A program made the position numbers and the translations under genes. The notes under the pieces are model-generated. The model was not told where the DNA came from and made no database searches. It saw only the letters and a list, made by a program, of their open reading frames with translations. 64,000 nucleotides of DNA from Selaginella moellendorffii (Eukaryota; Plantae; Lycopodiophyta). The stretch's first letter is position 1, and every line of letters begins with the position of its first letter. The stretch covers positions 310,001 through 374,000 of the forward strand of contig NW_003314367.1 of assembly GCF_000143415.4 (NCBI RefSeq), written 5' to 3'. Below, one piece after another: positions 3,148 to 59,555 of this stretch.

Positions 3148-4998
3148 TGTAAGCGACTAATTTTTCCATTCTACTTTAGTCACTTAACCACACCTCCGAC
3201 CACTTGGAAGAGTCTCATTCACAACCTCCATAAGTCCAACTCAGGACTTGGGGCTTGGTAGCCCCGAGAATGGCATCCATGCCACTCAACCTTAGCACGT
3301 GGTCCAAGTGCTCCACGTGTCCGATCCCATGATCGACACCCTAAGGTACCACCGACGTATCGGCCTGTTACGCTAAGGCCATGCCCATTTACCTTGGTCA
3401 CACTGGTGGTCCAACACCACCTGCATTCCAATCCTCTCTCCAAGACTGAGTCATCCGTCCATGAGTGATCATCCTAGATCCACTCCTTAACATCCTTAAG
3501 ATGCCTACAGACATGGGGAATAGCCTTCCCCAATAACTCTGTTCCGGTCCCCACCAAGTCCCTTTCTGTCCTTGGCTATGTTCGCCAACACTGCCACTGG
3601 ATCAAGGCCCACCGGCCCGACCACTAAGTCCCACTATCCTCTAGGACTTCCTCACCATGTGACCGTATCCTTGGTCACTACATTAGAGGCCTACTTCTCT
3701 TCCCTTTCACCGTTTGGGACTTTGGGACAACATTTCGGAACACCGTGGCCTTACGCAAGCCTCATGGGTACTCTCCCCGCCTTTCGCCTTTAGGTGCTCT
3801 AGCCATGAGCTTAGAGCGAGGTTCCGTTGAGCCACGACAGGTATCCAAGTAGGTAGTGCCACCCACACTTGGACTGGGAGCATCGGCCAGTCGATCTCCC
3901 GGGGGGTACTAGAGCCGGCTCTTGAACACTTCACCAAGCTACCCCGCTTGTCGGTCCGTGTTCACTCTAGTCTTGGACTTCCCAGTGGGCAGCTCATCAC
4001 CCAACACTGGGTCTGGCCTTCCTGGGCCCAACTGGCCTTTCCTGGCCAAACTGGCTCCACTGCAGTCCTCCCCCTACTATACTTTTGGAGCTCACCAAAC
4101 CCCCCAGGGTCTGGGAGACGAATGCTTTGGGCTTTCACCCTCTCAGACTCGAACTCGGACTCGGACTCGGACTCGGACTCGGACTCGGCCTCGGTCTCGG
4201 CCTCGGTCTCGGCCTCGGCCTCGGTCTCGGCCTCGGCCTCGGTCTCGGCCTCGGCCTCGGTCTCGGCCTCGGCCTCGGTCTCGGCCTCGGTCTCGGTCTT
4301 GGTCCCGGTCTCGGTCTCGGTCCCGGTCTCGGTCTCGGTCTCAGTCTCGACTTCGGACTCCATCTCGGACTCCATCTCGGACTCCATCTCGGACTCCATC
4401 TCAGACTCCATCTCGGGTCCATCTCGGACTCCAGCTCGGACTCCATCTCGGGTCCATCTCGGACTCCATCTCGGACTCCATCTCGGGTCCATCTCGGGTC
4501 CACCTCGGACTCCATCTCGGCGTCCATCTTGGACTCCATCTCGGGTCCATCTCGGGTCCACCTCGGGTCCACCTCGGACTGCATCTCGGACTCCACTTTG
4601 GACTCCAACTCGGGTCCATCTCGGACTCCATCTCGGACTCGAACTCGGGTCCATCTCGGATTCCACTTCGGACTCCAACTCGGGTCCATCTCGGACTCCA
4701 TCTCGGACTCCAACTCGGGTCCATCTCGGATTCCACTTCGGACTCCAACTCGAGTCCATCTCGGACACTTCTACGTATCATGTGTTGGTCCTTTTGGGTC
4801 CCTTTTTAGAGCCTCGCTTATTGCTCGCCTCATGCTCGTTCCTCGAGCACTTTGTTGGGAGTTCCACTCCCGCTCTTGACTTTTCAAGTCGGAGCTTTTG
4901 GTCCAAACGTGTTACGCTCGTTTGGCTCTCGTTTCAGCCACTACCACGTGGCACCCTTTCCGGCTCCACTTTGGGGCCTAGGGATTTTGTGTCTCACA
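3148..4998 (-). repeat. Element A 3' LTR (~1.85 kb)
   Basis: Plus-strand ends TGTAAG...CTCACA. Nearly identical to 9103-9954 and to the later pieces of the 5' LTR. Confidence 0.92.
4148..4765. repeat. LTR-internal tandem array: (CTCGGA/C/T)n hexamers followed by CTCGGACTCCAT / CTCGGGTCCAT 11-12-mers
   Basis: Directly visible. Equivalent arrays at ~17642-18245, ~18580-19262 and ~24610-25203, and a related array in the B LTRs (~10755-11010, ~17140-17392). Confidence 0.95.
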
Positions 4999-7900
4999 AC
5001 TCCACCACCCATCGACGAAGTTCGATGTCCTCATCGAACGGTAAACCATTTTGTAAAGTAATACTCACATGTGTTACCATTTCCATCCTTGGCACTTAGC
5101 CAATATTTGTCAATGGTTTGACATTGAAGGCTCACCATGCCTTTTTGCATATGCCTCAATGGTTTGACACCAAAGGCTCCCCATGCCTTGCCTATCCTCT
5201 AAGGAGGGTAGTCTCTCCAACTTAGAGACTGATTGGACCACATGTAGTGGTTCTTTCCTTTTATTGGTTTAGTTCTCGCTAAACCTCTTAGAGACCCTTC
5301 TCTAAGTCAATCCCACTACTCCTTCTCGAGTAGTCTCAATTTCCATCTATTGAATGTTTGCACCTTGGAACTTTTACTCTTTTGACTTTTGGAAGTCAAT
5401 TTCCTAGGTGTCTCCAACACCTTGCATTGCACAGATTGTGCAGCTCCACTTCCCTATCCTAGGAAGTTCATTACTTGAGGGCACCATCATCCTTTTTTCT
5501 ATTTCGTGCCACCTTGGGCACTAAGTTCCATTTATCACACTTTGTGCTAGGGTTGTCCATCGCCCTATCATTTGGCTACCTTACCGCTCCCTCCCTTGGA
5601 GCTTCCACTTTCGCCAAATCGGAGCAATTCGGAATCCATCCTTGGAAACACACTTCCTTTCCCACAATTTGTTAGCGTCCAACACATTAGTGTTCCTCGC
5701 CTAACTTTGTCACTTGGATTCCTTCCAAGGAATTCCACGGCCCTATCTTGGCCACTCATCTTTTGCTTCTATCCATTGATTGTTGCACCAAGCAACATCG
5801 AATCTCTACCTCCCTCCTTGAGGTGTTCTTTTGATTCCATAGCAAAGGCTTTGCTTTGCCAAGACTAGGGTGTTCACCCCTAGTAAGTCTCTTTTAGCAT
5901 CTTCTGCTGTGGGCTCTATCCTTGGCCCAACTTTGTGACCCTCTCATGGGTCTCTTTAGAGACTACTTTCCTTGGACACATTATGCCATCGCAATGACAT
6001 AGCTCATTTCCCTAAGGTGCTTTTCCCACTTGGTCACCTTGACCAAGCCACACCATCATCAATAGTTCAAATCATCACTTTGAACTAGGAACCTTATTCC
6101 TTAACCCAAACAAGGACCTTGTCCTTATTTAGCCACAAGATCATCTAGTGATCTCACCTTGGCACGTTAACAGGTTTGCCAATAGGTACTAAGTCTTCTA
6201 GACCTTTAACTTGTTAACTACGACCCCGGGGGCATCCCCCACACTTGGCGGTGCGCCCAAGCTAGCCCTTCCGGCCAAGGGTCCATAGCAACTGAGATTA
6301 GGTGTCCCCATCTCACTCACCACGTCCTTGGTGCCACTTGCACCAAAGCGTTCAAGTTAGATATGCCGAGCTTTCACACTAAGCAATCTAACCGTGCATC
6401 ACGACTCCGAGGCATCCCTCGCTTGGCGGTGTGCCCAAACCAGTCTCCCCACTGAGAGTCCATGACCACCGAAATATGAGTGTCCTCATATTCCAAACCA
6501 TCACCACGCCCTAGTGATTTGGGACTCGAACCTAAGCACTAGAGGGTCGGGACTCGAACCCAACCTCCGTATATGCATCTACGGACGGCATCACACAAGA
6601 TGCCTGGCGTGACTCCCCACGCCGGTGCACCAACTTATTTTTAAAGCGCGCTACAGATCACAGCTTAGGAACCTAGTTCCCCCACACTGCCAAGTCCTCT
6701 CACTTGACATATCTGTGATCATGCATGGGCTCCTCCATGTTTGGCCCCATGGGCCACCCTTTTTGAAGTTAGCACCTTCAACTAGGGTATTTATTCCCCC
6801 CAACTTGCCAATCTCACTTAGCAAGTCATCCGACCACCGTAACATGGTTCATGCATAAGCGTGGAAGTCCTTAACCATCAACTTTCGTTCAAAGCCCTCT
6901 CTTTGAACACTCGGGAACTACTTCCCTAACCTTGACAGCCTTGCCTCATGGCAAGCTTCAAGACCACGCTTCTGCTGCGCCACTCTGATTTCGCGCGTTC
7001 TATGAACCATTTACACTTGGCCTTTCTAGGTACTAAGCTACCTAGAATCGTCTTTGGGAACCTTGAAGGAACTCTGTCCCTTAGCTTGCTAAGGCTTCCC
7101 TTTTTGCAAGCTTTCCAATTGCCACATAGTCTAACATAGACAATTCCATATTTTAGACTCTCCATGGCATCACGGTTGCTAGCGGCAACACCCTCGAGCC
7201 CCCACTTAATTCTCCACTCCCAGCTGGCATAAATAACCTTGGTTATGCCCTTCGATTTCTATGGTTCAGTTCCATCCCAATACTACTTGCCTTTTGGCCC
7301 CATATGTTTCCTTTGGTTATTCTCCTCCAGACCAGGAGGATAGCTTTTGCACTTTCTATCATGCCTTAGCAAGTATTCTTAGGGATGTACCTACCCAATA
7401 GCCCAAGGAGTGGTTCCTCAATCCGGGTATGCTCACCTTATAATCCCACACACTGGGATTACATTGTTGCTTATGGGCCTTTACATGCCCATCAGTAGCC
7501 TTGCCAAAATTCCATTCTTGGCTTTGTCCAACTCGGGTAGACAGTCCTCTCCTGTCTCCGCTACCTCGGACATTTGGATAGCACCTTCTATCCATCATTC
7601 GTTAGGGACTTAGTCCCTTGGGCTTTATCCATTGCCCTCGCGACATCAAACACCACCTTCTAGTGTTTTAGAGTGTTCGGGTGTCCCAATGATGGCTTTC
7701 TTGACAATGAGTATTTCCTTTTATGATATTGACTTACTATATCGCAACACAAGCAACTTATCCCCCGTAAGGGTGTATCCGACTTCCCTATGCTATTAAG
7801 AAGTCTTGGGTAGCTACCTTCTACCCGTTCAACCAGTTATTTTGCACATTTTGCTTAGTTGCCTCATAGTTGTCAAGTCCTACAACTCATTGTTTGGTGC

Positions 7901-9954
7901 TTTCACACCTCCATCATTATCTGGGTCACCACACTCCAATTGCATGCTCTGCAGCTTAGGCTATGCCATTCCCATTTCCATTGGGATTCCTTTGGCAAGG
8001 AGTTCTCATGAACCCACCAACATAGCCTCAAGGTATCACACCTTGGCACATTTGGTGTCTCCACACCATCGGCTCCACAAGCCTACCTCTATGACACTTC
8101 CCCTTCGTGTTTATGTCTTTGCCAAGACCAACACCGCTCTTTCTCATGCCAACCATCCGTTAGCACTGCACCATAGAAGTCACACACAACTTTGTGTCAA
8201 AGTTGTTTTCTTCTGAGAACACCTTTCCCATAACTTTAGCATGGCACATTTTGTCATCGATGAGATACCCTCTGTTTTCATCCTTGGATCCTATGATCCC
8301 CCCCCCCATCCTTTGTGGGGTACAACACACCTCAGTCCAAATGCTTCCATCAGTCCTTTTAGGACCATCCCTTGACTCTACTTGAGTCATCAACAGTTTT
8401 GGACTTGGTTAATCCATAGACCCTTAAAGTCCTACTTGTGAGGCACTAGCTCACTGGAATACACTTCTGGCATTCCTGTCCTACTCAAAAGGACTATTTT
8501 CACAAGTGTTACTCCGACACTTGATTTTGTTCTCTGGGGGCAACTTTTGCCCCTTAGGACTTGCGATGAGAATACCACTCATCTCTAAGTACACCCCCCA
8601 ACTCCTTGGGTTGTTCCAGCATTTATTAAAGGTAGCCCCGGCTACCATTTCAAGGACTTGAGTCCTCTTCCGTATTTGACCTCCCACGGTCATTACCTCT
8701 GGTCTCACATTCATGACCACCAACCTCAACTATATGAGGATAATCTTGTGACTCCTTTATTGTTTTGGAGTCTCTATCTTTCCCGTGATCCCAACTTTAG
8801 TTGTTTACCACAACAACCTTAGCCAATTTGCTGAGACAAATGCTCATCCGGATCACATCCTCAACTCAATGAGGAAAACCTTGCACTGTTCCCAAGATCC
8901 CAAAGTCGTTCCATTATTGGCCCTTTTCTATCCACCACCTTATCTACAAGTTCACACATGAACTGTAATGGAGAGCCATGTCTTCCCGACTTGCTACTCC
9001 TCAAGGATAGGCCCACTCCTCGGACCTTCCGATGCCAACACTAGTGGTGATATACTTGAGCACCAATAAAAGTCGGACTAAGGAACAGCCCTGATACCAA
9101 ATTGTAAGCAACTAATTTTTCCATTCTACTTTAGTCACTTAACCAAACCTCCGACCACTTGGAGGAGTCTCATTCACAACCTCCATAAGTCCAACTCAGG
9201 ACTTGGGGCTTGGTAGCCCCGAGAATGGCATCCATGCCACTCAACCTTAGCATGTGCTCCAAGTGCTCCACGTGTCCGATCCCATGATTGACACCCTAAG
9301 GTACCACCGACGTATCGGCCTGTTACGCTAAGGCCATGCCCATTTACCTTGGTCACACTGGTGGTCCAACACCACCTGCATTCCAATCCTCTCTCCAAGA
9401 CTGAGTCATCCGTCCATGAGTGATCATCCCAGATCCACTCCTTAACATCCTTAGGATGCCTACAGACATGGGGAATAGCCTTCCCCAATAACTCTGTTCC
9501 AGTCCCCACCAAGTCCCTTTCTGTCCTTGGCTATGTTCGCCAACACTGCCACTGGATCAAGGCCCACCGGCCCGACCACTAAGTCCCACTATCCTCTAGG
9601 ACTTCCTCACCATATGACCGTATCCTTGGTCACTACATTAGAGGCCTACTCCTCTTCCCTTTCACCGTTTGGGACTTTGGGACAACATTTCGGAACACCG
9701 TGGCCTTATGCAAGCCTCATGGGTACTCTCCCCGCCTTTCGCCTTTAGGTGCTCTAGCCATGAGCTTAGAGCGAGGTTCCGTTGAGCCACGACAGGTATC
9801 CAAGTAGGTAGTGCCACCCACACTTGGACTGGGAGCATCGGCCAGTCGATCTCCCGGGGGGGGTACTAGAGCCGGCTCTTGAACACTTCACCAAGCTACC
9901 CCGCTTGTCGGTCCGTGTTCACTCTAGTCTTGGACTTCCCAGTGGGCAGCTCAT

Positions 9955-11102
9955 TGTAAGCCACAAATTTTTCCTTTCCAATTTGCCAGCTTACCTCGTC
10001 TATCCGTCCAACACTGCCTTGGCTTTTGCTAAGTTCCCTTGCCAAGGTTATCGCCTATGGTACCAGCTCCTACTTGGTTTCAGCTACTCACTGCACGAGC
10101 AATGGAGCGTTAGCCATCCTTCCACGGATTCCCAAATCACTCCCAATCCCCCTCCCCGGGTTAGACTGGACTTAAGGTTCGGCTACACTCCCCACAAGCA
10201 CAAGTAGCCAAGCACACCAAGCTTCCAGGTTCCTAACATCCCTTGGTACCACAAGACTTGATCATGGGACCCTCTAAATCCCAAGTCTTGAGTGCAACAC
10301 TTGCTTCGGGACGCCGGGGCGAAACACCGTGGCCTAACGGCCCGGCATGGGTACCTCTCGCCCCCCACTTCCATCCCGAAGGAAGGCCCAAGCCCCTAGG
10401 AAGGGCGAGGACCAATGAGCCGCATGGTACTCAAGTGGGGCACCACTCCACATGAGCCGAGAGCACCGCAATCGGTTTCCCTTTCGGGAGTGGGAGCTGC
10501 TCTTGAGCACTTCCTTGGATGGCCCCTCCGGCACCAACCAAGTCCATGCTCACTCCCACCCAAGGCCCCTCGGTCCCAGTCCCAACCTCAAGTCAGTTTG
10601 GGAGCCCCACTGGAGAGTCCCTTCTAAACTGGTTCCTGGACCTCACTATCCCTACTATACTTTTGGAACCCCCTGCAGCCCCCCCCCCCTGGGGGACGCA
10701 CGCTTTGGGCTTTCACCCCTTGACCCGTATTAGTATTTGGACTTAGTCTCTGGCTCGATCTCGGATCCGATTTCAGATCCGACTTCGGATTCGGTCTCGG
10801 ACTCGATCGCGGACTCGATCTCGGACCCGATCTCGGGCCCGACCTCGGACTCGACTTCGGACTCGGTCTCGGACCCGATTTCGGATCTCGGACTTCGTCT
10901 CGAACTCGGTCTCGAACTCGGACTCGAACTCGGTCCCCGAGTCGGTCTTGGACTCGATTCCGGACTCTATCTCGAACTCGGTCCTAGAGTCGGTCTTGGA
11001 CTCGATCTTTGACTTGGTCCCATCCGATGAACTTTTTGTCATTTTGGTCATGCTTTCGGGGTTCCCTTAGCCTACGACACCTCGGCGAGTTGGTTCCTTA
11101 CA
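9955..11102 (-). repeat. Element B 3' LTR
   Basis: TGTAAG...CTTACA; about 99% identical to 16338-17486 by eye. Confidence 0.95.
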
Positions 11103-11505
11103 ACTCCACCACCCATAGAAGAAGTTCGATGCCCACATCGAACGTCTCTTTTTTATCCTACGACTTGTTGACCATGTCTCCGGGGGCATCCCCCCACTTA
11201 GCGGTGTGCCTAAGTTAGCCTCCCCGGCCAAGAGCTCATGACAACGGAATATAGGTGTCCCTATACTCCACCCCTCACCACGCCCTAGTATGGGGTCGGG
11301 ACTTGAACCCAGCCTTGCTTTACTAGGGGGTTGGGACTCAAACCCAACCTCCGTAGAATACGTCTACGGATTCGACATCCCCGCAGGGAGTCGGGCGTAG
11401 CTCCCTACGCCTGGTCGACCTAGCTAACCCATGCTAATTAGCTTACCTTCGGCGTGCCTTCGGGTCCCAACATATGCCATTGCTCAACTTCTCAAATTGA
11501 TACTT

Positions 11506-14500
11506 TTAATTGAACTTTGCATAAGTACATAGAGTTCTGCCATGCAGAAATTCCTCCACTAGATCTCGCGCGTTCGCTAGGTTCTCCTCCGGTTCCCATG
11601 TTGCTTCGCAGTGTGGAAATCCTTTCCACTTCACATGGAACTCTCTCACCTCACGTCCTTGTCGCTTGCTCTTGCGCGCATTGAGGATGGCCTCGACTTC
11701 GTATTCCTCCTCCCCTTGGATAACCTTAGGTAAAGGTCTTACTTGGTCCTTGCGAAGCGGATCCTCAAAATACGGCTTGAGTAAGTTCACGTGGAACACG
11801 GGATGCATCTTCCCCATCTCTCGAGGAAGTCGGAGACGGTAAGCCACTTTACCGATTCGAGCCTCAATCTCGTAAGGCCCCGCGAACCTGCTTAAGGAAC
11901 TCAAGATCAATTCATTTACAGGAATACATGCATTTTTACCTTTGGGTCAACTTCCGGCTGATCCCACTTGGTAGCCTGAGGTTCTTGGTGTTCAGCCACA
12001 CCTTCTCCCCAGCTTGGAACTCCACATCTCGACGCTTTTGGTTCGCGTACTTAGTTTGCCTTTGTTGAGCCCGTTCCAAGGAATCCCTCACTAGATTCCA
12101 AATGTTGAGTCTTTCCGCCGTGAATGCCTCCACTACGGGTAACTCTCCATGATACTCGGCCACGCCGAGTTCCACAGGACCTTCAATAGCTCGCCCATTG
12201 ATGACTTCCCATGGACTCACCCCGATGCTCGAATGTGGTGAGTTGTTATAACACATTTCCGCAAGTCCCAAATGACTTACCCAGTCGGTCTGGTCTCCCG
12301 AGACATAGCATCGCAAATAATCCTCCAGTTGCCTATTCACCCTTTCTGTTTGTCCGTCTGTCAAGAAGTGTTAGTGCCATCAATCTTGACTCAATACCCA
12401 TTACCTGTCTGTGGGTGATAGGCCGTGCTGAATTTCAACTTGGTGCGATACTGTTCTAGGAGTGTCCTCCAGAACCTACTGGTGAAGATCTTATCTTGAT
12501 CTGAGATAATCTCTTCCGGCCTTCCCCGCACTCGAACCACTTGTTCGAAGAACAGCTTCGCCACACCTTCCGCATCCACATCCGTTGTGGTGGGTATGAA
12601 ATGTGCCATCTTTGAAAATCGGTCCACCACCACGAATATCGCATCGAACCCCTCGCTTGGGGGTAGTCCCGTGATGAAGTCCATCGTGAGACATTTCCAC
12701 GGACGATCTGGAATGGGGATGCTTTGCAACAAGCCCCCACTAGCCTTCGTCACGGCTTTGACCTGCTGACATGTTGGGCATGTCTTTACATAGTCTTGGA
12801 CGTCCTTAGCCATATCTGGCCAGTGATACTTCCTTTTGAGTAAGCCCATCGTCTTGGGCACTCCGCCGTGTCCCGCGAGAGGTCCGTCATGACACTCTTC
12901 CAAGGCTACCTTCCTTAGTTCCCCTTCTGGAACATACACCCTCGTTTGCTTGTAATATATGAGTCCGTTGCGTTCCACATAGCCCGTTTTCTCTTCCGTT
13001 GGCAGCTCACCTCTCTGGTGAGCTTCCCGCGCCTCCAGATTCCTCAGCAACACTTCTTGTGCTAGACCATCACTCTCGTATGCGGTCCGCACATCGTCCC
13101 AAAAGGTTGTTGTCGCGCTAGATATCGCCAACTTCAAGCTCGCTTTTCGACTTAGCGCATCTGCCACGATGTTGCTCTTCCCAGGCTTGTACAGGATCTC
13201 GCAATCAAACTCCGCCAAAGCATTGGCCCACCGACCTTGTTTTCCCCTTAGGTCGGGCTGTGACAAGAAGTGTTTCGTTGCCACATTGTCCGTGTAAACC
13301 TTGAAGTGTCTCCCAAGGTAGTGTCGCCACTCCTTGAGCGCCTTGACCACCGCAAACAATTCCTTCTCGTGGGCAGGCCACTTCCGTTGAGCCTTGTCCA
13401 GTTTCTTCGAGAAGAACGCTACTGGATGGTTGTCTTGCTTCAAAACTGCGCCCAACGCAAAGTCCGAAGCATCCGTGTCTACCTCAAAGTCCTTACCAAA
13501 GTCTGGTAATGCCAACACCGGAGCCTTCCTCAACTTCCCTTTGAGGTGGACGAATGCCGCCTCGCATTCCGCTATCCATACCATCTTCCCTTTTCCTGTT
13601 TGGTCCGTTAAGGGCAGGGCTACTCTCGAATAGTGTCTGATAAACTTTCGATAGTAGTTGCATAGCCCCAGGAACGCCCTCAACTCATGTACATTCAATG
13701 GTCGTTCCCATTCCTGGATCGCTTGGACCTTCTCCGGGTCCACCTTGAGCCCGTCCTGGCCCACCACATGCCCGAGAAACTTTACCTCTTGTTGAGCAAA
13801 GTCACATTTGCTCTCTTTAGCATACAGTTTGTGTTCCCTTAGTTTCTCAAACACCTTCGCCAAGTGTTCGGCATGCTCCTCTAGCGTCTCGCTATAGATC
13901 AGGATGTCGTCAATATAGACGACCACGAAGCGATCCAGATAGGGTACAAAGATGTGGTTCATCAATGCCGAAAACGTTGCCGGCGCATTGCACAGCCCAA
14001 AGGGCATCACCAAAAACTCAAAGCTCCCATACCTCGTTCGACAGGTTGTCTTCTCGACATCTTCCTCAGCTACCCTGATCTGGTAGTATCCTGACCTTAG
14101 GTCAATCCTCGAGAAGTATTTTGCCTTTCCCAACCTATCGAACAGGTCCTCGATCCTTGGCAAAGGGTACTTGTTCTTCTTGGTATACTTGTTGAGCAAC
14201 CGGTAGTCTATGCACATGCGCATAGATCCATCTTTCTTTTTCACAAATAGCACCGGTGCCCCATACGGCGACTTGCTCAACCTAACATACCCTTTGCCCA
14301 CCAACTCTTCTAGTTGGCTCTTGAGCTCCTTGAGTTCTTTTTCATTCAATCGATAGGGTGGACGAACCACCGCCTCAGCACCCTCGACCAGCTCAATCTT
14401 ATGTTCTATCGGTCGTGCGGGGGGCAACCCCGCCGGTAGCTCCTCTGGCATGGTATCCTGGAATTGGTCCAGCACCTGCTGGATCACTAAAGGTACTTCT

Positions 14501-16278
14501 TCCGTTCTTGTCTTTTTGTCACTCTTCACCGAGAGTAAGCACAAAAAGGCTGCCTTAGTTCCTTTAGTGAGTTGTCCTCTCGTGGACACCAGGTTTAAGC
14601 ATGACTCTTTGGCCTTGCTTTGCCCTACCTTTAGATCCTGGGCCTCCACCCTAGATCTTCTTCCTTGGGCATTCGCCAATACCACAAGGTTCGTACCTTG
14701 TCCATGTAGGGCTACCACGAACCGATTAAACCAATCCATTCCGAAGATCACGTCAAATCCCGCCATGTCCAAGACGGTGAAATCCATGTCCACTTTCCAT
14801 GTCCCCACTTCGACTCTCGCTTGTCGAAGTACCTCATCGGTGCTTTGGCTACCTTGAACAAACTCTATAGTCCTTGGTTCGCCTAGCCGCTGCACCGTTA
14901 GTCCGGCTTGCCGGACTATGTCTGCAGCCACAAAATTATCCGAAGCACCCGTGTCAATAAGGATCTTAACAAAGCTACCTCCGAGCTTCCCTCGGAGGGC
15001 TAGTAGATGTCGCGAACGACTCTCTACCAAAGTTGCTCGTGTAATGAGTAACTTTGAGTTAGGGACTGGATCACATACCTCAGTTTGGACTTCACCCGAC
15101 TTGATGGCCATATTGGCTCTGGCCTTCTTCGGGTAGGGACATTCCCTCGAGAAGTGTCCCGCTTCGCCGCAGTTGTAGCATATGTTGTTGCCCACGCTGC
15201 TATACGACTTGACCTTCTTATCCGTGGGTTTGTCTTTTTTCGCTTGACTTCCCCACGTACTCGCTCGCTGGCCACCGGATTTGCTTTTCCGGAACCCCGA
15301 GGACTCATTCTTAAAGAAACTCTTCTTGAATTTCCCCTTGCTATATGTTCCCCTCGGTTTGGCCCCTTTGTGAAACGTGGATCCCGACCCCGTCGTGTTC
15401 CCCTTTCGCAGGTTATCGTTGAAATGCACCTTGATGGCCGCATCCAACGCTTCCTTGTAGTTGGTCGGGTTCCAGCGCATCACCTCACCGCGAGCCCAGG
15501 TTTGCAAACCTGATATAAAGGCATGGAACGTATCCATATCCCCCATGTCCGTGACAAGTATCCTCTTTGCCATGAACCCATTCACATATTCCTGGATGGT
15601 TCCAGTTTGCTTCAGCCTACTCAACTCATCTCTCAGATGCAGAGTGGCATTCGGAGGAACGTATGTCGCGCGGATCCTCGCCTTCATCATGTCCCAGGTG
15701 GCCACCGGTCCTTCGTTGGCCTCCGTTGTTCTCCACCAAGACTTGGCATTATCTGCCAAGTATGGTTTTGCACATGGGACCTTCTCCGAGCTCGGTAACC
15801 GCAACGCTCGGAAGTAGTCCTCCATATCGTAAAACCAATCCTCCACAACCTTATAGTCGTTCACTCCCTTGAACACCGGTGGGGGCTTTGGTTTGTACTT
15901 GGGAACTGCCTGAGGGACTGATTCCACTTCGGTCTGTTCGACCTTGTCTGGTTTTGCCTCAGTCCCTGCCGAAGGGTCCGCACCTTCTGCGCTGCCAGCA
16001 TCCGCAGTCTTTCGCTTTTTCTTCCGCTTCTCGTCACGCTTTAACTTGCGTACGAGAGTCTCCAGCAGGGCATTGGTCTGTGCCAACTGTCCTTCTAGGA
16101 CGTCCAATCGAGCCTTGGACGACCAAACCTCGCCACCGGACTCCTGTTTGGAAGTTTCCTCACTGGAGTCCTCCTCATGCAAGGATTCCTCATCCATAGC
16201 CTCTTGTTCAACCGGAGGCTCCAGCTCCGGCGGAGGTTCCGTCTCCGCCTGGGTTCGCTTACGCCCTGCCCTTGCCAT
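11506..16278 (-). CDS. Gag-Pol polyprotein (Gag-CCHC, PR, RT, RNase H, IN, chromodomain); predicted exons 16278-12405, 12357-11940, 11887-11506, giving 1557 aa
   Basis: Motifs [43 protein letters not shown] zinc finger, MDF..SDQD..TERVN, FAGPY, and chromodomain YEVEAIL...VKWKGF...ATWEPEENL. The three exons total 4674 nt, i.e. 1558 codons including the stop. Confidence 0.9.
11888..11939 (-). other. Predicted 52-nt GT-AG intron just before the GPY/F motif
   Basis: AAG|GTAAAAATG...TTCCTTAAGCAG|GT, AT-rich. Removal restores KLTQRFAGPY. Confidence 0.85.
12358..12404 (-). other. Predicted 47-nt GT-AG intron in the integrase core
   Basis: CAG|GTAATGG...CACTAACACTTCTTGACAG|AC, with a CTAAC branch site. 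Removal restores the conserved [12 protein letters not shown]. Confidence 0.85.
15024..15078 (-). other. Candidate 55-nt alternatively retained intron between the Gag zinc knuckle and the protease
   Basis: GAG|GTATGT...CCTAAC...TTTGGTAG|AG. The frame stays open if it is retained. Splicing gives ...QTE-RVVRDIY-stop (TAG at 15002-15000). Confidence 0.5.
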
Positions 16279-16337
16279 CTCCCAACAATCCGCCTCTATC
16301 CTTCGCTAGAACTGAGATAAAGGCTCCGATACCAAAT

Positions 16338-17486
16338 TGTAAGCCACAAATTTTTCCTTTCCAATTTGCCAGCTTACCTCATCTATCCGTCCAACACTGC
16401 CTTGGCTTTTGCTAAGTTCCCTTGCCAAGGTTATCGCCTATGGTACCAGCTCCTACTTGGTTTCAGCTACTCACTGCACGAGCAATGGAGCGTTAGCCAT
16501 CCTTCCACGGATTCCCAAATCACTCCCAATCCCCCTCCCCGGGTTAGACTGGACTTAAGGTTCGGCTACACTCCCCACAAGCACAAGCAGCCAAGCACAC
16601 CAAGCTTCCAGGTTCCTAACATCCCTTGGTACCACAAGACTTGATCATGGGACCCTCTAAATCCCAAGTCTTGAGTGCAACACTTGCTTCGGGACGCCGG
16701 GGCGAAACACCGTGGCCTAACGGCCCGGCATGGGTACCTCTCGCCCCCCACTTCCATCCCGAAGGAAGGCCCAAGCCCCTAGGAAGGGCGAGGACCAATG
16801 AGCCGCATGGTACTCAAGTGGGGCACCATTCCACATGAGCCGGGAGCACCGCAATCGGTTTCCCTTTCGGGAGTGGGAGCTGCTCTTGAGCACTTCCTTG
16901 GATGGCCCCTCCGGCACCAACCAAGTCCATGCTCACTCCCACCCAAGGCCCCTCGGTCCCAGTCCCAACCTCAAGTCAGTTTGGGAGCCCCACTGGAGAG
17001 TCCCTTCTAAACTGGTTCCTGGACCTCACTATCCCTACTATACTTTTGGAACCCCCTGCAGCCCCCCCCCCCCTGGGGGACGCACGCTTTTGGCTTTCAC
17101 CCCTTGACCCGTATTAGTATTTGGACTTAGTCTCTGGCTCGATCTCGGATCCGATTTCGGATCCGACTTCGGATTCGGTCTCGGACTCGATCGCGGAATC
17201 GATCTCGGACCCGATCTCGGGCCCGACCTCGGACTCGACTTCGGACTCGGTCTCGGACCCGATTTCGGATCTCGGACTCCGTCTCGAACTCGGTCTCGAA
17301 CTCGGACTCGAACTCGGTCCCCGAGTCGGTCTTGGACTCGATTCCGGACTCTATCTCGAACCCGGTCCTAGAGTCGGTCTTGGACTCGATCTTTGACTTG
17401 GTCCCATCCGATGAACTCTTTGTCATTTTGGTCATGCTTTCGGGGTTCCCTTAGCCTACGACACCTCGGCGAGTTGGTTCCTTACA
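16338..17486 (-). repeat. Element B 5' LTR
   Basis: Lies 3 nt from the tRNA-iMet PBS and matches 9955-11102. Confidence 0.95.
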
Positions 17487-18297
17487 CTCATCACCCAACA
17501 CTGGGTCCGGCCTTCCTGGGCCAAACTAGCCTTTCCTGGCCAAACTGGCTCCACTGCAGTCCTCCCCCTACTATACTTTTGGAGCTCACCAAACCCCCCA
17601 GGGTCTGGGAGATGAACGCTTTGGGCTTTCACCCTCTCAGACTCGAACTCGGACTCAGACTCGGACTCGGACTCGGACTCTGCCTCGGTCTCAGCCTCGG
17701 CCTCGGTCTCGGCCTCGGCCTCGGTCTCGGTCTCGGTCCCGGTCTCGGTCTCGTCTCGGTCCCGGTCTCGGTCTCGGTCTCAATCTCGGTCTCGACTTCG
17801 GACTCCATCTCGGGTCCATCTCGGACTCCATCTCGGGTCCATCTCGGACTCCATCTCGGACTCCATCTCGGACTCCATCTCGGGTCCATCTCGGACTCCA
17901 TCTTGGACTCCATCTCGGGTCCATCTCGGGTCCACCTCGGACTCCATCTCGGACTCCATCTCGGACTCCATCTCGGGTCCATCTCGGGTCCATCTCGGGT
18001 CCACCTCGGACTCCATCTCGGACTCCATCTTGGACTCCATCTCGGACTCCATCTCGGGTCCATCTCGGGTCCACCTCGGACTTCATCTTGGACTCCACTT
18101 CGGACTCCAACTCGGGTCCATCTCGGACTCCATCTCGGACTCAAACTCGGGTCCATCTCGGATTCCACTTGGGACTCCAACTCGGGTCCATCTCGGACTC
18201 CATCTCGGACTCCAACTCGGGTCCATCTCGGATTCCACTTCGGACACTTCCTCGTGTCATGTGTGGGTCCTTTTGGGTCCCTTTTTGGAGCCCCTCG

Positions 18298-21200
18298 TGA
18301 GACCCAACACCGATACGCCCCGAAGTGGATCNNNNNNNNNNNNNNNNNNNNNNNNNNNNNNNNNNNNNNNNNNNNNNNNNNNNNNNNNNNNNNNNNNNNN
18401 NNNNNNNNNNNNNNNNNNNNNNNNNNNNNNNACACGTGAGGCCCAACAAGCTCCGACTTGAAACGTCAAGAGCGGGAGTGGAACTCCCAACGAAGTGCTC
18501 GAGGAACGAGCACGAAGCGAGCAAAAGGCGAGGCTCCAAAAAGGGACCCAAAAGGACCAACACATGACACGTGGGAGTGTCCGAGATGGACTCGAGTTGG
18601 AGTCCGAAGTGGAGTCCGAGATGGACCCGAGTTGGAGTCCGAAGTGGAGTCCGAGATGGACCCGAGTTGGAGTCCAAAGTGGAGTCCGAGATGGACCCGA
18701 GTTGGAGTCCGAAGTGGAGTCCGAGATGGACCCGAGATGGAGTCCGAGATGGAGTCCGAAGTGGAGTCCGAGGTGGACCCGAGATGGACCCGAGTTGGAG
18801 TCCGAAGTGGAGTCCGAGATGGACCCGAGATGGAGTCCGAGATGGAGTCCGAGATGGAGTCCGAGGTGGACCCGAGATGGACCCACAATGGAGTCCGAGA
18901 TGGAGTCCGAGATGGACCCGAGATGGACCCGAGTTGGAGTCCGAAGTGGAGTCCGAGATGGACCCGAGATGGAGTCCGAGATGGAGTCCGAGATGGAGTC
19001 CGAGGTGGACCCGAGATGGACCCACAATGGAGTCCGAGATGGAGTCCGAGATGGACCCGAGATGGACCCGAGATGGAGTCCGAGATGGAGTCCGAGATGG
19101 AGTCCGAAGTCGAGACCGAGACCGGGACCGAGACCGAGACCGAGACCGAGATCGGGACCGAGACCGAGATCGAGGCCGAGGCCGAGACCGAGCCCGAGCC
19201 CGAGTCCGAGTCTGAATCCGAGTCCGAGTCCGAGTCCGAGTCCGAGTCCGAGTCCGAGTCCGGAGCCTGAGAGGGTGAAAGCCCAAAGCGTTCGTCTCCC
19301 AGACCCTGGGGGGTTTGGTGAGCTCCAAAAGTATAGTAGGGGGGAGGACTGCAGTGGAGCCAGTTTGGCCAGGAAAGGCCAGTTTGGCCCAGGAAGGCCG
19401 GACCCAGTGTTGGGTGATGAGCTGCCCACTGGGAAGTCCAAGACTAGAGTGAACACAGACCGACAAGCGGGGTAGCTTGGTGAAGTGTTCAAGAGCCGGC
19501 TCTAGTTCCCCCGGGAGATCGACTGGCCAATGCTCCCAGTCCAAGTGTGGGTGGCACTACCTACTTGGATACCTGGTGTGGCTCAACGGAACCCGCTCTA
19601 AGCCCATGGCTAGAGCACCCAAGGGCAGAAGGCGAGGAGAGTACCCAGGTGGCTCGCGTAAGGCCACGGTGTTCCGAAATGTTGTCCCAAAGGCCCAGAC
19701 TGTGGAAAGGAAGAGGAGCAGTCCTCTGGGGTAGTGACCAAGGACACAGTCGTGTGGTGAGGAAGTCCCAGAGGACCGTGGGACTTAGTGGTCGGGCCTG
19801 TGGGTCTCGATCCAGTGGCAGTGTTGGCAAACACGGCCAGGGGCAGAAAGGGACTTAGTGGGGACTGATAGAGGGATATTGGGGAAGGCTAATCCCCTTG
19901 TCGGTGGGCATCCTAAGGATGCTAAGGAGTGGATCTGAGATGACCACTCACGGATGGTTTGCCTAGTCTTGGAGAGCCAAGACGGTGATGCAAGTGGTAT
20001 TGGACTACTAGTGTGGCAAAGGTGATTGGGCATGGCCTTAGCGTAACGGGCTGCTATGTCGGTGGTACCTTTGAGTGTCGGTCATGGGATCGGACACGTG
20101 GAGCGCTTGGACCAAGTGCAAATGTTGAGTGGCATGGATGCCATTCTCGGGGCTAGCAAGTCCCAAGTCCTAGATTGGACTTATGGAGGTTGTGAATGAG
20201 ACTCCTCCAAGTGGTCAGAGGTGTGGTTAAGTGACCAAAGTAGAATGGAAAATTTAGTCGCTTACAACTTGGTATCGGAGCTGTTCCTTAGTCCGACTTT
20301 TATTGGTGCTCAAGTATATCACCACTGGTGTTGGCAACGGAAGGTCCGAGAAGTGGGCCTATCCTTGAGGAGTAGCAGGTCGGGAAGATATGGCTCTCCA
20401 TTACAGTTCATGTGTGAACTTGTAGACAAGGTGGTGGATAGAAAAGGGCCAATAATGGAACGACTTTGGGATCTTGGGAACAGTATATGGTTTTCCTCAA
20501 AGAGTTGAGGATGTGATCCAGATGAGCGTTCGACTTAGCAAACTGGCTAATGTAGTTGTGGTAAACAACTACAGTTGGGATCACGGGAAAGATAAAGACT
20601 CCAAAGCAATAAAGGAGTCACAAGATTTTCCTCATATAGTTGAGGTTGGTGCTCATGAATGTGAGACTAGAAGTAATGACCGTGGGAGGTCAAATACGGA
20701 AGAGGACTCAAGTCCTTGAAAAGGTAGCCGGGGCTACCTTTAATAAATGCTGGAACAACCCAAGGAGTTGGGGGTGTATTAAGTGGATGAGTTAGTGTTC
20801 TCATCACATGGACAAGTAGTCCTAAGGGGCAAAGGTTGCCCCCAGAGAACAAAATCAAGTGTCAGAGTAACACTTGTGAAAATAGTCCTTTTGAGTAGGA
20901 CAGGAATGCAAGAAGTGTATTTCAGTGAGCTAGTGCCTCACAAGTAGGACCTTACGGGTCTGTGGATTAACCAAGTCCAAAACGGCTGTATGACTCAAGT
21001 AGAGTCAACGGATGGTCCTGAAAGGACTGATGGAAGCATTTGGACTGAGGTGTGTTGTACCCCACAAAGGATGGGGGGGGATCATAGGATCCAAGGATGA
21101 GAACAGAGGGTATCTCATCGATGGCAAAATGTGCCATGCTAAAGTTATGGGAAAGGTGTTCCCAGAAGAAAACAACTTTGACATAAAGTTGTGTGTGACC

Positions 21201-24200
21201 TCTATTGTGCAGTGCTAACGGATGGTTGGCATGAGAAAGAGCGGTGTTGGTCTTGGCAAAGACTTAGACACGAAGGGGAAATGTCATAGAGGTAGGCTCG
21301 TGGAGCCGATGGTGTGGAAACACCAAATGTGCCAAGGTGTGATACCTTGAGGCTATGCTGGTGGGTTCATGAGAACCCCTTGCCAAAGGAATCCCAATGG
21401 AAATGGGAATAACATAGCCTAAGCTGCAGAGCATGCAGTTGGAGTGTGGTGACCCAGATAATGATGGAGGTGTGAAAGCACCAAACAATGAGTTGTAGGA
21501 CTTGACAACTATGAGGCAACTAAGCAAAAGGTGCAAAATAACTGGTTAAACGGGTAGAAGGTAGCTACCCAAGACTTCTTAATAGCATAGGGAAGTTGGA
21601 TATACCCTTACGGGGGATAAGTTGCTTGTGTTGCGATATAGTAAGTCAATATTATAAAAGGAAATACTCATTGTCAAGAAAGCCATCATTGGGACACCCG
21701 AACACTCTAGAACACCAGAAGGTGGTGTTTGATGTCGCGAGGGCAATGGATAAAGCCCAAGGGACTAAGTCCCTAGCGAATGATAGATAGAAGGTGCTAT
21801 CCAAATGTCCAAGGTTGCGGAGACAGGAGAGGACTGTCTACCCGAGTTGGACAAAGCCAAAAATGGAATTTTGGCAAGGCTACTGATGGGCATGTAAAGG
21901 CCCATAAGCAACAATGTAATCCCAGTGTGTGGGATTATAAGGTGAGCATACCCGGATTGAGGAACCACTCCCTAGGCTATTGGGTAGGTTCATCCCTAAG
22001 AATACTTGCTAAAGCATGATAAAAAGTGCAAAGCTATCCTCCTGGTCTGGAGGAGAATGACCAAAGGAAAGGTGTGAAGCCAAAAAGCAAGAAGTAAGGG
22101 GATAGAACCGAACCGTAGGAATCAAAGGGCATAACCAAGGTTGGTTATGCCAGCTGGGAGTGGAAAATCAAGTGGGGGCTCGAGGGTGTTGCCGCTAGCA
22201 ACCGTGATGCCATGGAGAGTCTAAAATATGGAATTGTCCATGTTAGACTATGTGGCATTTGGAAGGCTTGCAAAAAGGGAGGCCTTAGCAAGCTAAGGGA
22301 CAGAGTTCCTTCAAGGTTCCCAAAGACGATTCTAGGTAGCTTAGTACCTAGAAAGGCCAAGTGTAAATGGTTCATAGAACGCGCGAAATCAGAGTGGCGC
22401 AGCAGAAGCGTGGTCTTGAAGCTTGCTATGAGGCAAGGTTATCAAGGTTAGGGAAGTAGTTCCCGAGTGTTCAAAGAGAGGGCTTTGAACGAAAGTCGAT
22501 GGTCAAGGACTTTCACGCTTATGCAGGAACCATGTTACAGTGGTCGGAGGACTTGCCAAGCGAGATTGGCACGTCGGGGAAACAAATACCCTAGTTGAAG
22601 GTGATAACTTCAAAAAGGGTGGGCCATGGGGCCGAGCATGGAGGAGTCCATGCATGATCACAGACATGTCAAGTGAGAGGACTTGGCAGTGTGGAGGAAC
22701 TAGGTTCCTAAGCTGTGATCTGTAGCGCGCTTTAAAAATAAATTGGTGCACCGGCATGGGGAGTCACGCCAGGCATCTTGTGTGATGCCGTCCGTAGATG
22801 CATATACGGAGGTTGGGTTCGAGTCCCGACCCTTTAGTGCTTGGGTTTGAGTCCCAAATCACTAGGGCGTGGTGATGGTTTGGAATATGAGGACACTCAT
22901 ATTTCGGTGGTCATGGACTCTCAATGGGGAGACTGGTTTGGGCACACCGCCAAGCGAGGGATGCCTCGGAGTCGTGATGCACGGTTAGATTGCTTAGTGT
23001 GAAAGCTCAGCATATCTAACTTGAATGCTTTGGTGCAAGTGGCACCAAGGTCGTGGTGAGTGAGATGGGGACACCTAATCTCAGTTGCTATGAACCCTTG
23101 GCCGTAAGGGCTGGCTTGGGTGCACCGCCAAGTGTGGGGGATGCCCCCGGGGCTATAGTCAACAACTTGGAGGTCTAGAAGACCAAGTACCTCTTGGCAA
23201 CTCTGTTAAGGTGCCAAGGTGAGATCACTAGGTGATCTTATGGCCAGATATAGGCAAGGTCCTTGGTTGGCTAAGGAATGAAGTTCCTAGTTCAAAATGT
23301 TGAAATTGAACTGTTTAAGGTGGTGTGGCTTGGTCGTGATGACCAAGTGGGAAGAGCACCTAAGGGAAATAAACTATGTCCGTGCGATGGCATAGTGAGT
23401 CCGAGGAAAGTAGTCTCTATAAAAGACCCATGGGAGGGTCACGAAGTTGGGCCGTGGGTAGAGCCCATAGCAGAAGATGCTAAAGAGACGTACTAGGGGT
23501 GAACATCCTCCGGACTTGGCAAAGAAGAGTCTTTGCTATGGAACCGAAATAATACCTCAAGGAGGGAGGTAGAGATTCGATGTTGCTTGGTGCAACAATC
23601 AACGGATAGGAGCAAAGGACTAGTGGCCAAGTTTGGGCCATGGAATTTAATGAAAGGGATCCAAATGGCAAAGTTAGCCAAGGAACACTAATGTGTTCGA
23701 TGCTAACAGCTTGTGGGAAAGGAAGTGGACTTCCAAGGATGGATTCCTAAGTGCTCCAATTTAGCGAAGTAAAAGCTCCAAGTGAGGGAGCGGTAAGGTA
23801 GCCAAATAATAGGGCCATGGACAGCCCTAGCACAAAGTATGATAAATGGAACTTAGTGCCCAAGGTGGCACGAAATAGAAGAGAGGATGATGGTGCCCTC
23901 AAGTAATGAACTTCCTAGGATGGGGAAGTGGAGTTGCACAATCTGTGCAATGCAAGGTGTTGGAGACACCTAGGAAATTGACTTCCAGAAGTCAAAGAGT
24001 AAAAGTTCCAAGGTGCAAACGTTCCATAGATGGAAATTGAGACTACTCGAGAAGGAGTAGTGGGATTGACTTAGAGAAGGGTCTCTAAGAGGTTTAGCGA
24101 GAACTAAACCAATAAAAGGAGAGAACCACTACATGTGGTCCAATCAGTCTCTAAGTTGGAGAGACTACCCTCCTTAGAGGGTGGGCAAGGCATGGTGAGC

Positions 24201-25061
24201 CTTCAATGTTAAACCATTGACGAATACGGAGAAGGCATGGTGAGCCTTCAATGCCAGACCATTGACAAATATTGGCTAGGTGCCAAGGATGGAAATGGTA
24301 ACACTTGCGGGTGTTACTTTATAAAGTGGTTTACCGTTCGATGAGGACATCGAACTTCGTCTATGGGTGGTGGAGTTGTGAGACACAAAATCCCTAAGCC
24401 CCAAAGTGGAGCCGGAAGGGCGCCACATGGTAGTGGCCGAAGCGAGAGCCAAACGAGCGTAACACATTTGGACCAAAAGCTCCGACTTGAAAAGTCAAGA
24501 GCGGGAGTGGAACTCCCAACGAAGTGCTCGAGGAACGAGCACGAAGCGAGCAAAAGGCGAGGCTCCAAAAAGGGACCCAAAAGGACCAACACATGACACG
24601 TGGGAGTGTCCGAGATGGACTCGAGTTGGAGTCCGAAGTGGAGTCCGAGATGGACCCGAGTTGGAGTCCGAAGTGGAGTCCGAGATGGACCCGAGTTGGA
24701 GTCCAAAGTGGAGTCCGAGATGGACCCGAGTTGGAGTCCGAAGTGGAGTCCGAGATGGACCCGAGATGGAGTCCGAGATGGAGTCCGAAGTGGAGTCTGA
24801 GGTGGACCCGAGATGGACCCGAGTTGGAGTCCGAAGTGGAGTCCGAGATGGACCCGAGATGGAGTCCGAGATGGAGTCTGAGATGGAGTCCGAGGTGGAC
24901 CCGAGATGGACCCACAATGGAGTCCGAGATGGAGTCCGAGATGGACCCGAGATGGAGTCCGAGATGGAGTCCGAGATGGACCCGAGATGGACCCGAGATG
25001 GACCCGAGATGGAGTCCGAGATGGAGTCCGAGATGGAGTCCGAAGTCGAGACCGAGACCGG

Positions 25062-25093
<32 letters not shown>

Positions 25094-26208
25094 TCGGGAC
25101 CGAGACCGAGATCGAGGCCGAGGCCGAGACCGAGCCCGAGCCCAAGTCCGAGTCTGAATCCGAGTCCGAGTCCGAGTCCGAGTCCGAGTCCGAGTCTGAG
25201 TCCGGAGCCTGAGAGGGTGAAAGCCCAAAGCGTTCGTCTCCCAGACCCTGGGGGGTTTGGTGAGCTCCAAAAGTATAGTAGGGGGGAGGACTGCAGTGGA
25301 GCCAGTTTGGCCAGGAAAGGCCAGTTTGGCCCAGGAAGGCCGGACCCAGTGTTGGGTGATGAGCTGCCCACTGGGAAGTCCAAGACTAGAGTGAACACAG
25401 ACCGACAAGTGGGGTAGCTTGGTGAAGTGTTCAAGAGCCGGCTCTAGTTCCCCCGGGAGATCGACTGGCCGATGCTCCCAGTCCAAGTGTGGGTGGCACT
25501 ACCTACTTGGATACCTGGTGTGGCTCAACGGAACCCGCTCTAAGCCCATGGCTAGAGCACCCAAGGGCAGAAGGCAAGGAGAGTACCCAGGTGGCTCGCG
25601 TAAGGCCACAGTGTTCCGAAATGTTGTCCCAAAGGCCCAGACTGTGGAAAGGAAGAGGAGCAGTCCTCTGGGGTAGTGACCAAGGACACAGTCGTGTGGT
25701 GAGGAAGTCCCAGAGGACCGTGGGACTTAGTGGTCGGGCTTGTGGGTCTCGATCCAGTGGCAGTGTTGGCAAACACGGCCAGGGGCAGAAAGGGACTTAG
25801 TGGGGACTGACAGAGGGATATTGGGGAAGGCTAATCCCCTTGTCGGTGGGCATCCTAAGGATGTTAAGGAGTGGATCTGAGATGACCACTCACGGATGGT
25901 TTGCCTAGTCTTGGAGAGCCAAGACGGTGATGCAAGTGGTATTGGACTACTAGTGTGGCAAAGGTGATTGGGCATGGCCTTAGCGTAACGGGCTGCTATG
26001 TCGGTGGTACCTTTGAGTGTCGGTCATGGGATCGGACACGTGGAGCGCTTGGACCAAGTGCAAATGTTGAGTGGCATGGATGCCATTCTCGGGGCTAGAA
26101 AGTCCCAAGTCCTGGATTGGACTTATGGAGGTTGTGAATGAGACTCCTCCAAGTGGTCAGAGGTGTGGTTAAGTGACTAAAGTAGAATGGAAAATTTAAT
26201 CGCTTACA
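18298..26208 (+). mobile_element. Second LARD-like element (element C, same family as A, opposite orientation) inserted in the 5' LTR of A
   Basis: LTRs ~18298-20266 and 24377-26208. PBS TGGTATCGGAGC at 20270 and PPT ATGGGTGGTGGAGT at 24363-24376. TSD CCTCG at 18293-18297 / 26209-26213; the left end lies beside the N gap and looks low quality. The internal region is a diverged reverse complement of 4999-9102. Confidence 0.9.
18332..18431. other. Assembly gap (100 N)
   Basis: Run of N. Flanking bases deviate from the expected LTR sequence, suggesting poor read ends. Confidence 1.
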
Positions 26209-26400: not shown

Positions 26401-27560
26401 CTTCATCCGTAAGCTTGGCTACAGAAACCAGATTCTTCACTATCTTTGGAACATACCATGCATTCTTCAAGAGCAGAGATTTTCTTCCCAGTGGACCTCG
26501 CACATCCCCAGTTGCGCGAACAGGTAAAATGCTTCCATCTCCCACATGAATGCACTTCCCTTTTGCAGCATGCAACTGCACAAAGTTTGACCCGCTTTGC
26601 ATCAGGTGTCTCTCTGAACCTGAATCGATGGTCAGTTTTTCAGAAACGTTTGGAACTGCTACCTCAGATGATGCTGCAAGTTCTTGTGTTTCCCCTTCCT
26701 GAGCATTTGCTGCGAGCCTTATGTTCATGCGCTGCAGCCAAGCTGCAACTGGGCAATCCTTGGAGTAGTGTCCTGGCATCCCACAGGTCCAGCATTCCTG
26801 TTTGTTCTTGCCCACAAAACAATCCCGAACTACTGCTTCTTTACCAGAATTCCCTGAATTCTACTGCTGCTGTGGATTTCCCCTAAACCTGCGACCTCTG
26901 CCTCGTCCTCCTCTTCCGCGGCCTCCTCTGCCTCGATGATTTCCAGCCCACATAGCTGAATCAGTCCCTGACTGATTGATTGATGCAGAAGCATTTGATG
27001 TAGAATGTGAGATCAAAACATGGGAAGGCCTCTGATCAAAGTCCACAATCAAACCTCTCGCAGCCAGCTCCGAGCGTAAAGTTTGCTCAGCTTGTTCAAA
27101 GTTGAGCGACATCATGCGAACGGTAGGGACGAAAGAACTAAAAGAAGAATCTTGCATGGCCTCGCAAAGTGCCAAAACTTTCTTGCTTTCGTTGAACGCT
27201 GCTAGACTGCCTTCAAGCTCCATCCACAGATCTTGCATCTTGGCGAGGAACTCTTCAAAGTTCTCGCCTGGATGAAAACGGGTCTCACGAATGCAAGTCT
27301 CGACCATGCTAATCTTGGAGAGGGAAAGAACAGCATACTTGTTGTGGAGATGAGCCCAGATCTCACAAGCACACTTATGACACAAACGCATCATAAGGGC
27401 ATCTGCAAACTTAGAAAGAATCAATCCTTTTGCTCGAGATTCCTTCTTCTCCAGCGCAGCTTGTTCCCCTGGATCAAGCTGTTGTCAAGCTGCTGGAACA
27501 GAGGCACGAATTGCCTCTTCATCCACGACTTCTCCTTCCACTGAAGTGAAGCTCCCAATG
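26401..27560 (-). pseudogene. Copia gag-protease remnant
   Basis: Gag-like ORF 26861-27424, zinc knuckle CWTCGMPGHYSKDC, protease-like LTIDSGSERHLM, and LKNAWYVPKIVKNLVSVAKLTDEGL, which continues at 3147 after A is removed. Frameshifted. Confidence 0.9.
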
Positions 27561-28950: not shown

Positions 28951-29057
28951 CGATCTTATACAGCGCTAGCCTACAGCTTCTATCTAAACTGGTTTTGCGA
29001 CATCCATATCAACAATCCGGCTTGTTTCGTCGGTGCTCGTCTTCTTCTTCGGTTTCT

Positions 29058-56930: not shown

Positions 56931-56982
56931 ATTATTAACCGCGCGCGACTTTAGGTTTAACACATTTTAGGGGTTGGCGGCT

Positions 56983-59139: not shown

Positions 59140-59555
59140 GCTCCTGGATCATGCATCAGAGGTAACATTATCAGAGGTAACAGCAGCGACAGGAACAGCC
59201 AGCCACCAAGCCAACTCCATTCGGAAATAAACTGTTACAGAGAATCCTCGAAAAGCGCACAAATATCACATGTTCCTCTACCATACAAAGCAATTGAACC
59301 CAGTGACTATCGGCAGCTCCAAAGGGTCTCATCCACCTACAAGAAAGTACCAATTAGACGCTGCCAGGCCACGTTCATGTCTATGTTCTTGCCCGGAAAA
59401 AGACTTACTATCAGAAGCTCACGACATATAAGCCTTTTTATTTCCGCAGATCCGAATCAGTAAAAAAAATTCCAGAGAAAAAAGAGAACAGTTCGTTGTT
59501 TCTATGAATCACTGAACCAGCAGCAGCGCCACTTTGCGCTTTGGACACGACCTGA

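Follow-up and report, generated by a model that had tools for sequence, protein, structure and literature searches.

Structure of the element and its surroundings

The window (the whole 64-kb stretch of DNA that was analysed) carries on its minus strand a complete LTR retrotransposon, whose outer features are as follows.

9955..17486, minus strand: full-length Ty3/gypsy chromovirus, 7532 bp, recognised by LTRs, target duplication and homology
16338..17486, minus strand: 5' LTR, 1149 nt, TG...CA, with a 12-G tract at 17073
16322..16334, minus strand: primer-binding site (PBS), 13 nt
11104..11114, minus strand: purine-rich tract preceding the 3' LTR
9955..11102, minus strand: 3' LTR, 1148 nt, differing from the 5' LTR by 10 mismatches and 1 internal gap

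The element is a young chromovirus-type LTR retrotransposon. It is bounded by a 5-bp target duplication (ATGAG at 17487-17491 and 9950-9954), and its TG...CA LTRs, PBS and polypurine tract are those of a Ty3/gypsy chromovirus, as are the Gag-PR-RT-RH-IN order and the C-terminal chromodomain found by Pfam. By the same matches the integrase does not precede RT, as it would in the Ty1/copia order. The chromodomain enters the frame of the element only once two introns in the integrase region are out. The proteins nearest to the element, mostly unnamed, are 59-62% identical across RT-RH. The PBS is presumably of the tRNA-Met type, going by the description in PMC3350952 rather than by a match to a tRNA.

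The element matches SM1-Galahad, a family of Selaginella moellendorffii (Novikov et al. 2012, PMC3350952), and we infer the family and its host from the description in the accessible part of that paper. SM1-Galahad was described as 7.5 kb long, with LTRs of more than 1 kb containing a tract of 11-25 G, a 13-nt tRNA-Met PBS, an ORF of 3885 bp (1295 aa) without a chromodomain, and two short downstream ORFs of 316 and 309 bp, the chromodomain lying in the 309-bp one (PMC3350952). Here, the corresponding values are 7532 bp, LTRs of 1149 and 1148 nt, 12 G, a PBS of 13 nt, an ORF of 3885 nt, and downstream ORFs of 106 aa (318 nt) and 103 aa (309 nt), the first of which differs by 2 nt from the published 316 bp. 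The placement in the Galadriel/Galahad clade comes from the same source (PMC3350952), whose accessible text reports a broken integrase and no intact copy, gives a multi-copy consensus carrying the same integrase break, and contains the words 'intron' and 'splic' 0 times. It also describes a relative, SM2-Galahad, with a single 1577-aa ORF and hundreds of copies.

The element has inserted into the LTR of a different LTR element, which occupies 3148-9954 together with 17487-18292 and has a second copy, 91% alike and in the opposite orientation, at 19417-26208. Both copies have LTR repeats, a PBS and a 3' purine tract similar to those of the studied element, and no coding domains were detected in them; none of the 13 ORFs had a Pfam match, and no tblastn match was found. 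This host element may be a non-autonomous partner of the SM1-Galahad-like family. An assembly gap of 100 N lies at 18332-18431, in a tandem-repeat LTR region. Pieces of Ty1/copia RT and Gag at 776-1765 and 26864-27484 (minus strand) flank the nested elements and may belong to a single older element that the insertions broke up. Elsewhere in the window, Pfam matches mark a piece of a PPR gene (28390-28965), a Helitron-like ORF (35866-37272), an ATPase-domain ORF (56971-58230) and an F-box ORF (58306-59148); the neighbouring PPR gene is of the streptophyte type. Moreover, two pairs of blocks are duplicated at about 96% identity, 43985-47571 with 60374-64000 and 41629-43004 with 55558-56931, and the first pair holds ORFs of 560 and 672 aa without Pfam matches.

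Coding layout and integrase introns

The internal features, given from 5' to 3' of the element, are as follows.

16312..16377, minus strand: leader intron, 66 nt, GT-AG, containing the final 40 nt of the LTR and all of the PBS; X1 (net 66 nt) and X4 (joint 16311/16378)
15079..16278, minus strand: gag exon, 400 codons from ATG 16278, with Retrotrans_gag and zf-CCHC (about 15136-15183) by Pfam
14922..15078, minus strand: alternative coding intron, 157 nt, GT-AG; joint 14921/15079 in X1 and X3
15024..15078, minus strand: candidate 55-nt intron read from the sequence, sharing donor 15078, acceptor use not seen
14916..14918, minus strand: TAG at which a 401-aa Gag would end once the 157-nt intron is out; not in frame in Pol
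12405..14921, minus strand: remainder of the protease, RT, RNase H, integrase zinc finger, catalytic Asp 1200 and 1260
12358..12404, minus strand: integrase intron, 47 nt, GT-AG; joint in an X1 contig and 1 raw X14 read
11888..11939, minus strand: integrase intron, 52 nt, GT-AG; joint in X1
11506..11887, minus strand: last exon, with SH3-like domain, chromodomain (about 11548-11703) and stop, by Pfam

Without splicing, the ORF starting at ATG 16278 has 1295 codons and covers Gag, the CCHC knuckle, protease, RT, RNase H and most of the integrase, while the SH3-like and chromodomain matches lie downstream in another frame. Once the 47- and 52-nt introns are out, the full Gag-Pol frame amounts to 1557 aa. 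Frameshifting is not needed, since Gag and Pol share one frame that is open through RT and RNase H; no slippery-type heptamer occurs near the Gag end, the only one being at 15336.

The two integrase introns had been called in a preliminary description made from the letters of the window, and the joints of both were found in X1. The stop of the unspliced 1295-aa ORF (12391-12393) sits within the 47-nt intron, and the catalytic Glu1296 (12344-12346), 35 residues after Asp1260, is reached only past it, so that the D-D(35)-E spacing is restored only after the 47-nt splice. An active integrase would therefore need splicing, because the unspliced frame ends at 1295 aa, before Glu1296. Across the 47-nt joint, all 85 homologue alignments spanning it are gapless (85/85); for the 52-nt joint, which lies in a more variable stretch, this holds for 42/72. 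Among the best 40 of 205 protein matches, 28 have the integrase motif and 25 of these 28 continue for more than 200 aa. Given that relatives run on for more than 200 aa and that SM2-Galahad has a single 1577-aa ORF, the integrase introns are likely to be gains in the SM1-Galahad family. The published breaks of SM1-Galahad (in the accessible part of PMC3350952) correspond to introns here, and two further introns were seen.

Sequencing evidence

Eight of 23 listed sequencing runs were compared with the window. X1 (study P1), X3 (P2) and X4 (P3) consist of contigs and are RNA by guess only; their joint-bearing contigs are about 96-97% like the window and thus come from other copies or alleles. 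All four joints (52, 47, 157 and net 66 nt) are present in X1, each with GT..AG on the coding strand, and are distributed over three separate contigs, one of which links the two integrase introns only. None of the four joints was found in the DNA-like X8 (1486 contigs, bearing another organism label) or X9 (332 contigs). One X9 contig, with a depth of 46.9, runs unbroken through both integrase introns; X9 holds 3 Mb of contigs only and would miss a single-copy intron-less element. The raw RNA runs X14-X16 gave 10, 2 and 0 reads, none of them over the gag intron.

The U content of the introns is 0.29-0.35, against 0.17 in the gag exon and 0.21 in pol. Low-depth skips without GT-AG, four in X8 and one in X4, were discounted as artefacts or as deletions in diverged copies. 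Two distant loci among metagenome contigs, at 32% identity, were left aside. Gag-based protein searches gave no matches, and none of the viral contigs matched.

The gag intron

A frameshifting intron begins just after the CCHC knuckle, as had been proposed for a splicing switch to Gag-only protein. The donor on the minus strand, GAG/GTATGT at 15078, reads as described beforehand and is used in the joints of X1 and X3. The proposed intron was the 55-nt stretch ending at 15024, with CCTAAC and TTTGGTAG, which is indeed present and open in frame if retained; its removal would give RVVRDIY-stop and a 407-aa Gag from ATG 16278. The acceptor that is used, however, is that at 14922, and the intron is 157 nt long in both X1 and X3, which would give a Gag of 401 aa. 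The junction 15079/15023 was found in 0/8 runs, and X1 and X3 are the only ones showing any joint from donor 15078. The switch is thus partly supported, being real in outline with the wrong acceptor. That the 55-nt intron is the main Gag switch, producing the 407-aa Gag, is most unlikely: GT, CTAAC and AG are present and the size is like that of the other three introns, but two runs join the same donor to 14922 and none of the eight to 15024. Contigs drop rare forms, so minor use of the 55-nt splice is possible.

The joint 14921/15079 (157 nt, CT..AC on the plus strand) was found in contigs of two separate studies, in X1 (P1) at a depth of 7.73 with at least 255 letters on the shorter side, and in X3 (P2) at a depth of 4.67 with 30 letters on the shorter side. 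If retained, the 157-nt intron encodes residues 401-453, including the protease DTG (14947-14955); if it is removed, the protease active site is lost and one codon more is read before the TAG. The acceptor reads TGCAG and follows a U-rich stretch; TTGAC, 36 nt upstream of it, overlaps the codon of the catalytic Asp and is the inferred branch point. Within the gag intron, X3 has a bin mean depth of 4.37, about 0.7 of that from the spliced contig by a hand count; this depth beside the spliced contig indicates that spliced and retained forms both occur. In X1, the gag intron was seen only as the spliced form (bin mean 1.03). The spliced contig of X1 extends 763 nt beyond the joint into pol, contigs being unable to show RNA ends.

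By its letters the gag donor is unremarkable. With a 9-position consensus, 22 of the 317 sense-strand GT sites in 11102-16600 score at least as high, and this simple score failed to single out the true donors; most out-of-frame AGs downstream of donor 15078 likewise give a nearby stop, and no notable fold was found at either the gag donor (z 0.73) or the gag acceptor (z 0.40). The best donor-like site of the element (8/9) is at 11446 (minus strand), in the 3' untranslated region, and no joint occurs there. In addition, X4 contains a low-depth, non-canonical skip, 14871/14984, of 112 nt (14872-14983), which is possibly a 106-nt GT-AG intron (14978-14873) that removes the protease site too, or else an artefact.

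The TAG of the spliced Gag lies 2511 nt upstream of two further junctions. A stop codon far upstream of junctions is a likely target of nonsense-mediated decay, and the 157-nt-spliced Gag RNA may invite decay via these distant downstream junctions.

The leader intron and the PBS

The preliminary description counted three introns; splices from the gag donor and in the integrase were seen, and a fourth, which covers the LTR end and the PBS, had been missed. Of this leader intron, the first 40 nt belong to the LTR; its end lies 10 nt beyond the PBS and 33 nt before the ATG. Its joint comes from two studies (X1, P1; X4, P3), and it is retained in X3 and X9. In a hairpin at 16334-16384 (minus strand) the leader donor is paired to the LTR end (z -4.25, 1/200 shuffles, in a window chosen afterwards), and a second hairpin (z -2.31, 3/200 shuffles, in a window chosen after viewing the larger fold) includes the leader acceptor. 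The fold of the whole leader is not significant (z -1.03), and the same leader region of the partner LTR element has no notable fold (z -0.33). The donor hairpin may set how much RNA escapes splicing.

RNA without a PBS cannot start tRNA-primed reverse transcription. As the leader splice removes the LTR end together with the PBS, RNA spliced there would not be primed, and the splice would thereby bar mRNAs from being copied.

A probable role of splicing in sorting RNA

Four GT-AG introns are removed in the transcript-like contigs of related copies, and we consider it probable that splicing sorts the RNA of this element into three jobs. The evidence for splicing is good at all four sites; that the gag splice serves Gag excess is likely, and a gate on the PBS by the leader splice is plausible. 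With the 157-nt intron out, a joint seen in related copies, the predicted product is the 401-aa Gag. With this intron kept and the 47- and 52-nt introns out, the frames and the catalytic motif predict a 1557-aa Gag-Pol from an isoform of that kind. Unspliced RNA would serve as the genome, and fully spliced RNA would give Gag. The joints fit this three-isoform scheme, which we infer from separate molecules, each contig or read covering just one of the leader, gag and integrase regions. Only if leader splicing accompanies the internal splices would the bar on copying account for the survival of introns in a family copied through RNA. X3 shows the gag splice but only the retained leader (depth 13.5) and the retained 47-nt intron (depth 5.52), and this pattern does not fit a strict coupling of leader and gag splicing unless assembly dropped the leader joint.

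Since the joint-bearing runs are RNA by guess only and X1 has joined forms only, the joined contigs might be intron-less genomic copies, either as DNA or as their transcripts, rather than the product of ongoing splicing. This is very improbable, as X8 and X9 have no such joints, one raw RNA read has the 47-nt joint, the subsets of joints vary between runs, and normal LTR replication does not make a copy without the LTR end and PBS. A dead integrase, with short insertions merely tolerated and the family moved by the integrase of its intron-less relative SM2-Galahad, is extremely unlikely; the single 1577-aa ORF and hundreds of copies of that relative (accessible text of PMC3350952) would suit it, but the exact excisions in X1 bring back the catalytic motif and open a frame of 1557 aa that includes SH3 and chromodomain.

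The gag splice could instead be real but incidental, either cryptic or feeding decay, with Gag excess made otherwise, the leader splice having no role in the choice of genome RNA and only the integrase introns being functional. The donor that is unremarkable by sequence (22/317), the Gag stop far upstream of two junctions, X3 without a leader joint, the further low-depth non-canonical skip 14871/14984 in X4, and the finding of each joint in two runs only are in its favour. Nevertheless, we regard it as unlikely: the identical joint was found in two studies, the splice removes the protease site and meets a stop one codon on, as in the EVD element discussed below, X1 assembled the spliced form only, and with Gag and Pol in one frame there is no slippery-type heptamer near the Gag end. 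Sorting of RNA by splicing is the preferred reading.

Relation to known systems

The gag splice resembles that of EVADE/COPIA93 (EVD) and other Ty1/copia elements of Arabidopsis, in which an alternative intron over the protease yields shGAG (Oberlin et al. 2017, accessible part of PMC5580714). In both cases the splice shifts the frame and the Gag stop lies just past the joint. Unlike the present element, with its three further introns, EVD belongs to Ty1/copia and has one intron. In the shGAG strategy the spliced RNA is translated preferentially, and splicing is coupled to early polyadenylation (PMC5580714); here the spliced contig goes on for at least 760 nt into pol. According to the same text, conserved splicing was not seen in Arabidopsis Ty3/Gypsy elements (PMC5580714). 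BARE1 of barley, also Ty1/copia, was reported to make Gag via splicing over the protease (Chang et al. 2013, accessible part of PMC3735527); it also separates translated from copied RNA, but by two promoters and a missing R region, not by PBS removal. In Ogre (Ty3/gypsy, Tat lineage), known to us by secondary description, the full polyprotein requires intron removal and the copies retain the intron (PMC6317226, PMC3735527), whereas here Gag, RT and RNase H lie in one open frame. Penelope-like elements keep introns too, including a 5' UTR intron across the boundary of repeat and body, and the reason for retention is stated as unknown in the accessible part of Craig et al. 2021 (PMC8557442); they differ in being non-LTR elements without a tRNA primer.

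A further reading, which we put forward tentatively and hold at slightly below even, is that the layout reverses the retroviral scheme. Gag and active integrase would be made from spliced mRNAs only, the genomic RNA would be unable to encode a working integrase, and the PBS-removing leader intron would mark every spliced RNA as uncopyable, so that introns in pol could be gained and kept. A foamy-virus splice donor lies upstream of the PBS. Retroviruses package unspliced RNA only, and foamy virus Pol comes from spliced RNA (accessible text of PMC13736810 and PMC7828637). MMTV is unlike the present element in that its spliced RNA keeps the PBS, which lies before the major donor (PMC13736810).

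According to the accessible part of PMC12786077, introns are generally absent from plant LTR elements, with Ogre and EVADE as the exceptions. In the literature searched, with most subscription journals and repeat-database reports outside it, no report of introns in SM1-Galahad was found; within the same scope, no introns inside the integrase of an LTR element, no PBS-removing intron in an LTR retrotransposon and no four-intron layout in a Ty3/gypsy chromovirus were found. The accessible texts of PMC12786077, PMC2864245, PMC7828637, PMC12130899, PMC2911113 and bioRxiv 2024.04.02.587720 contain nothing on the four-intron layout. The SM1-Galahad family is known, and its introns appear not to have been reported previously.

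Retroelements should lose introns in each round of copying, yet a high-copy family here keeps four, one of them inside the catalytic motif of the integrase, and the layout offers a testable reason for this retention. The production of Gag by splicing would be extended from Ty1/copia to a Ty3/gypsy chromovirus, and the leader splice would be a simple way to part translated from copied RNA. Moreover, the family, on record as lacking any intact copy, may be intact, and ORF-based screens may therefore miss active elements.
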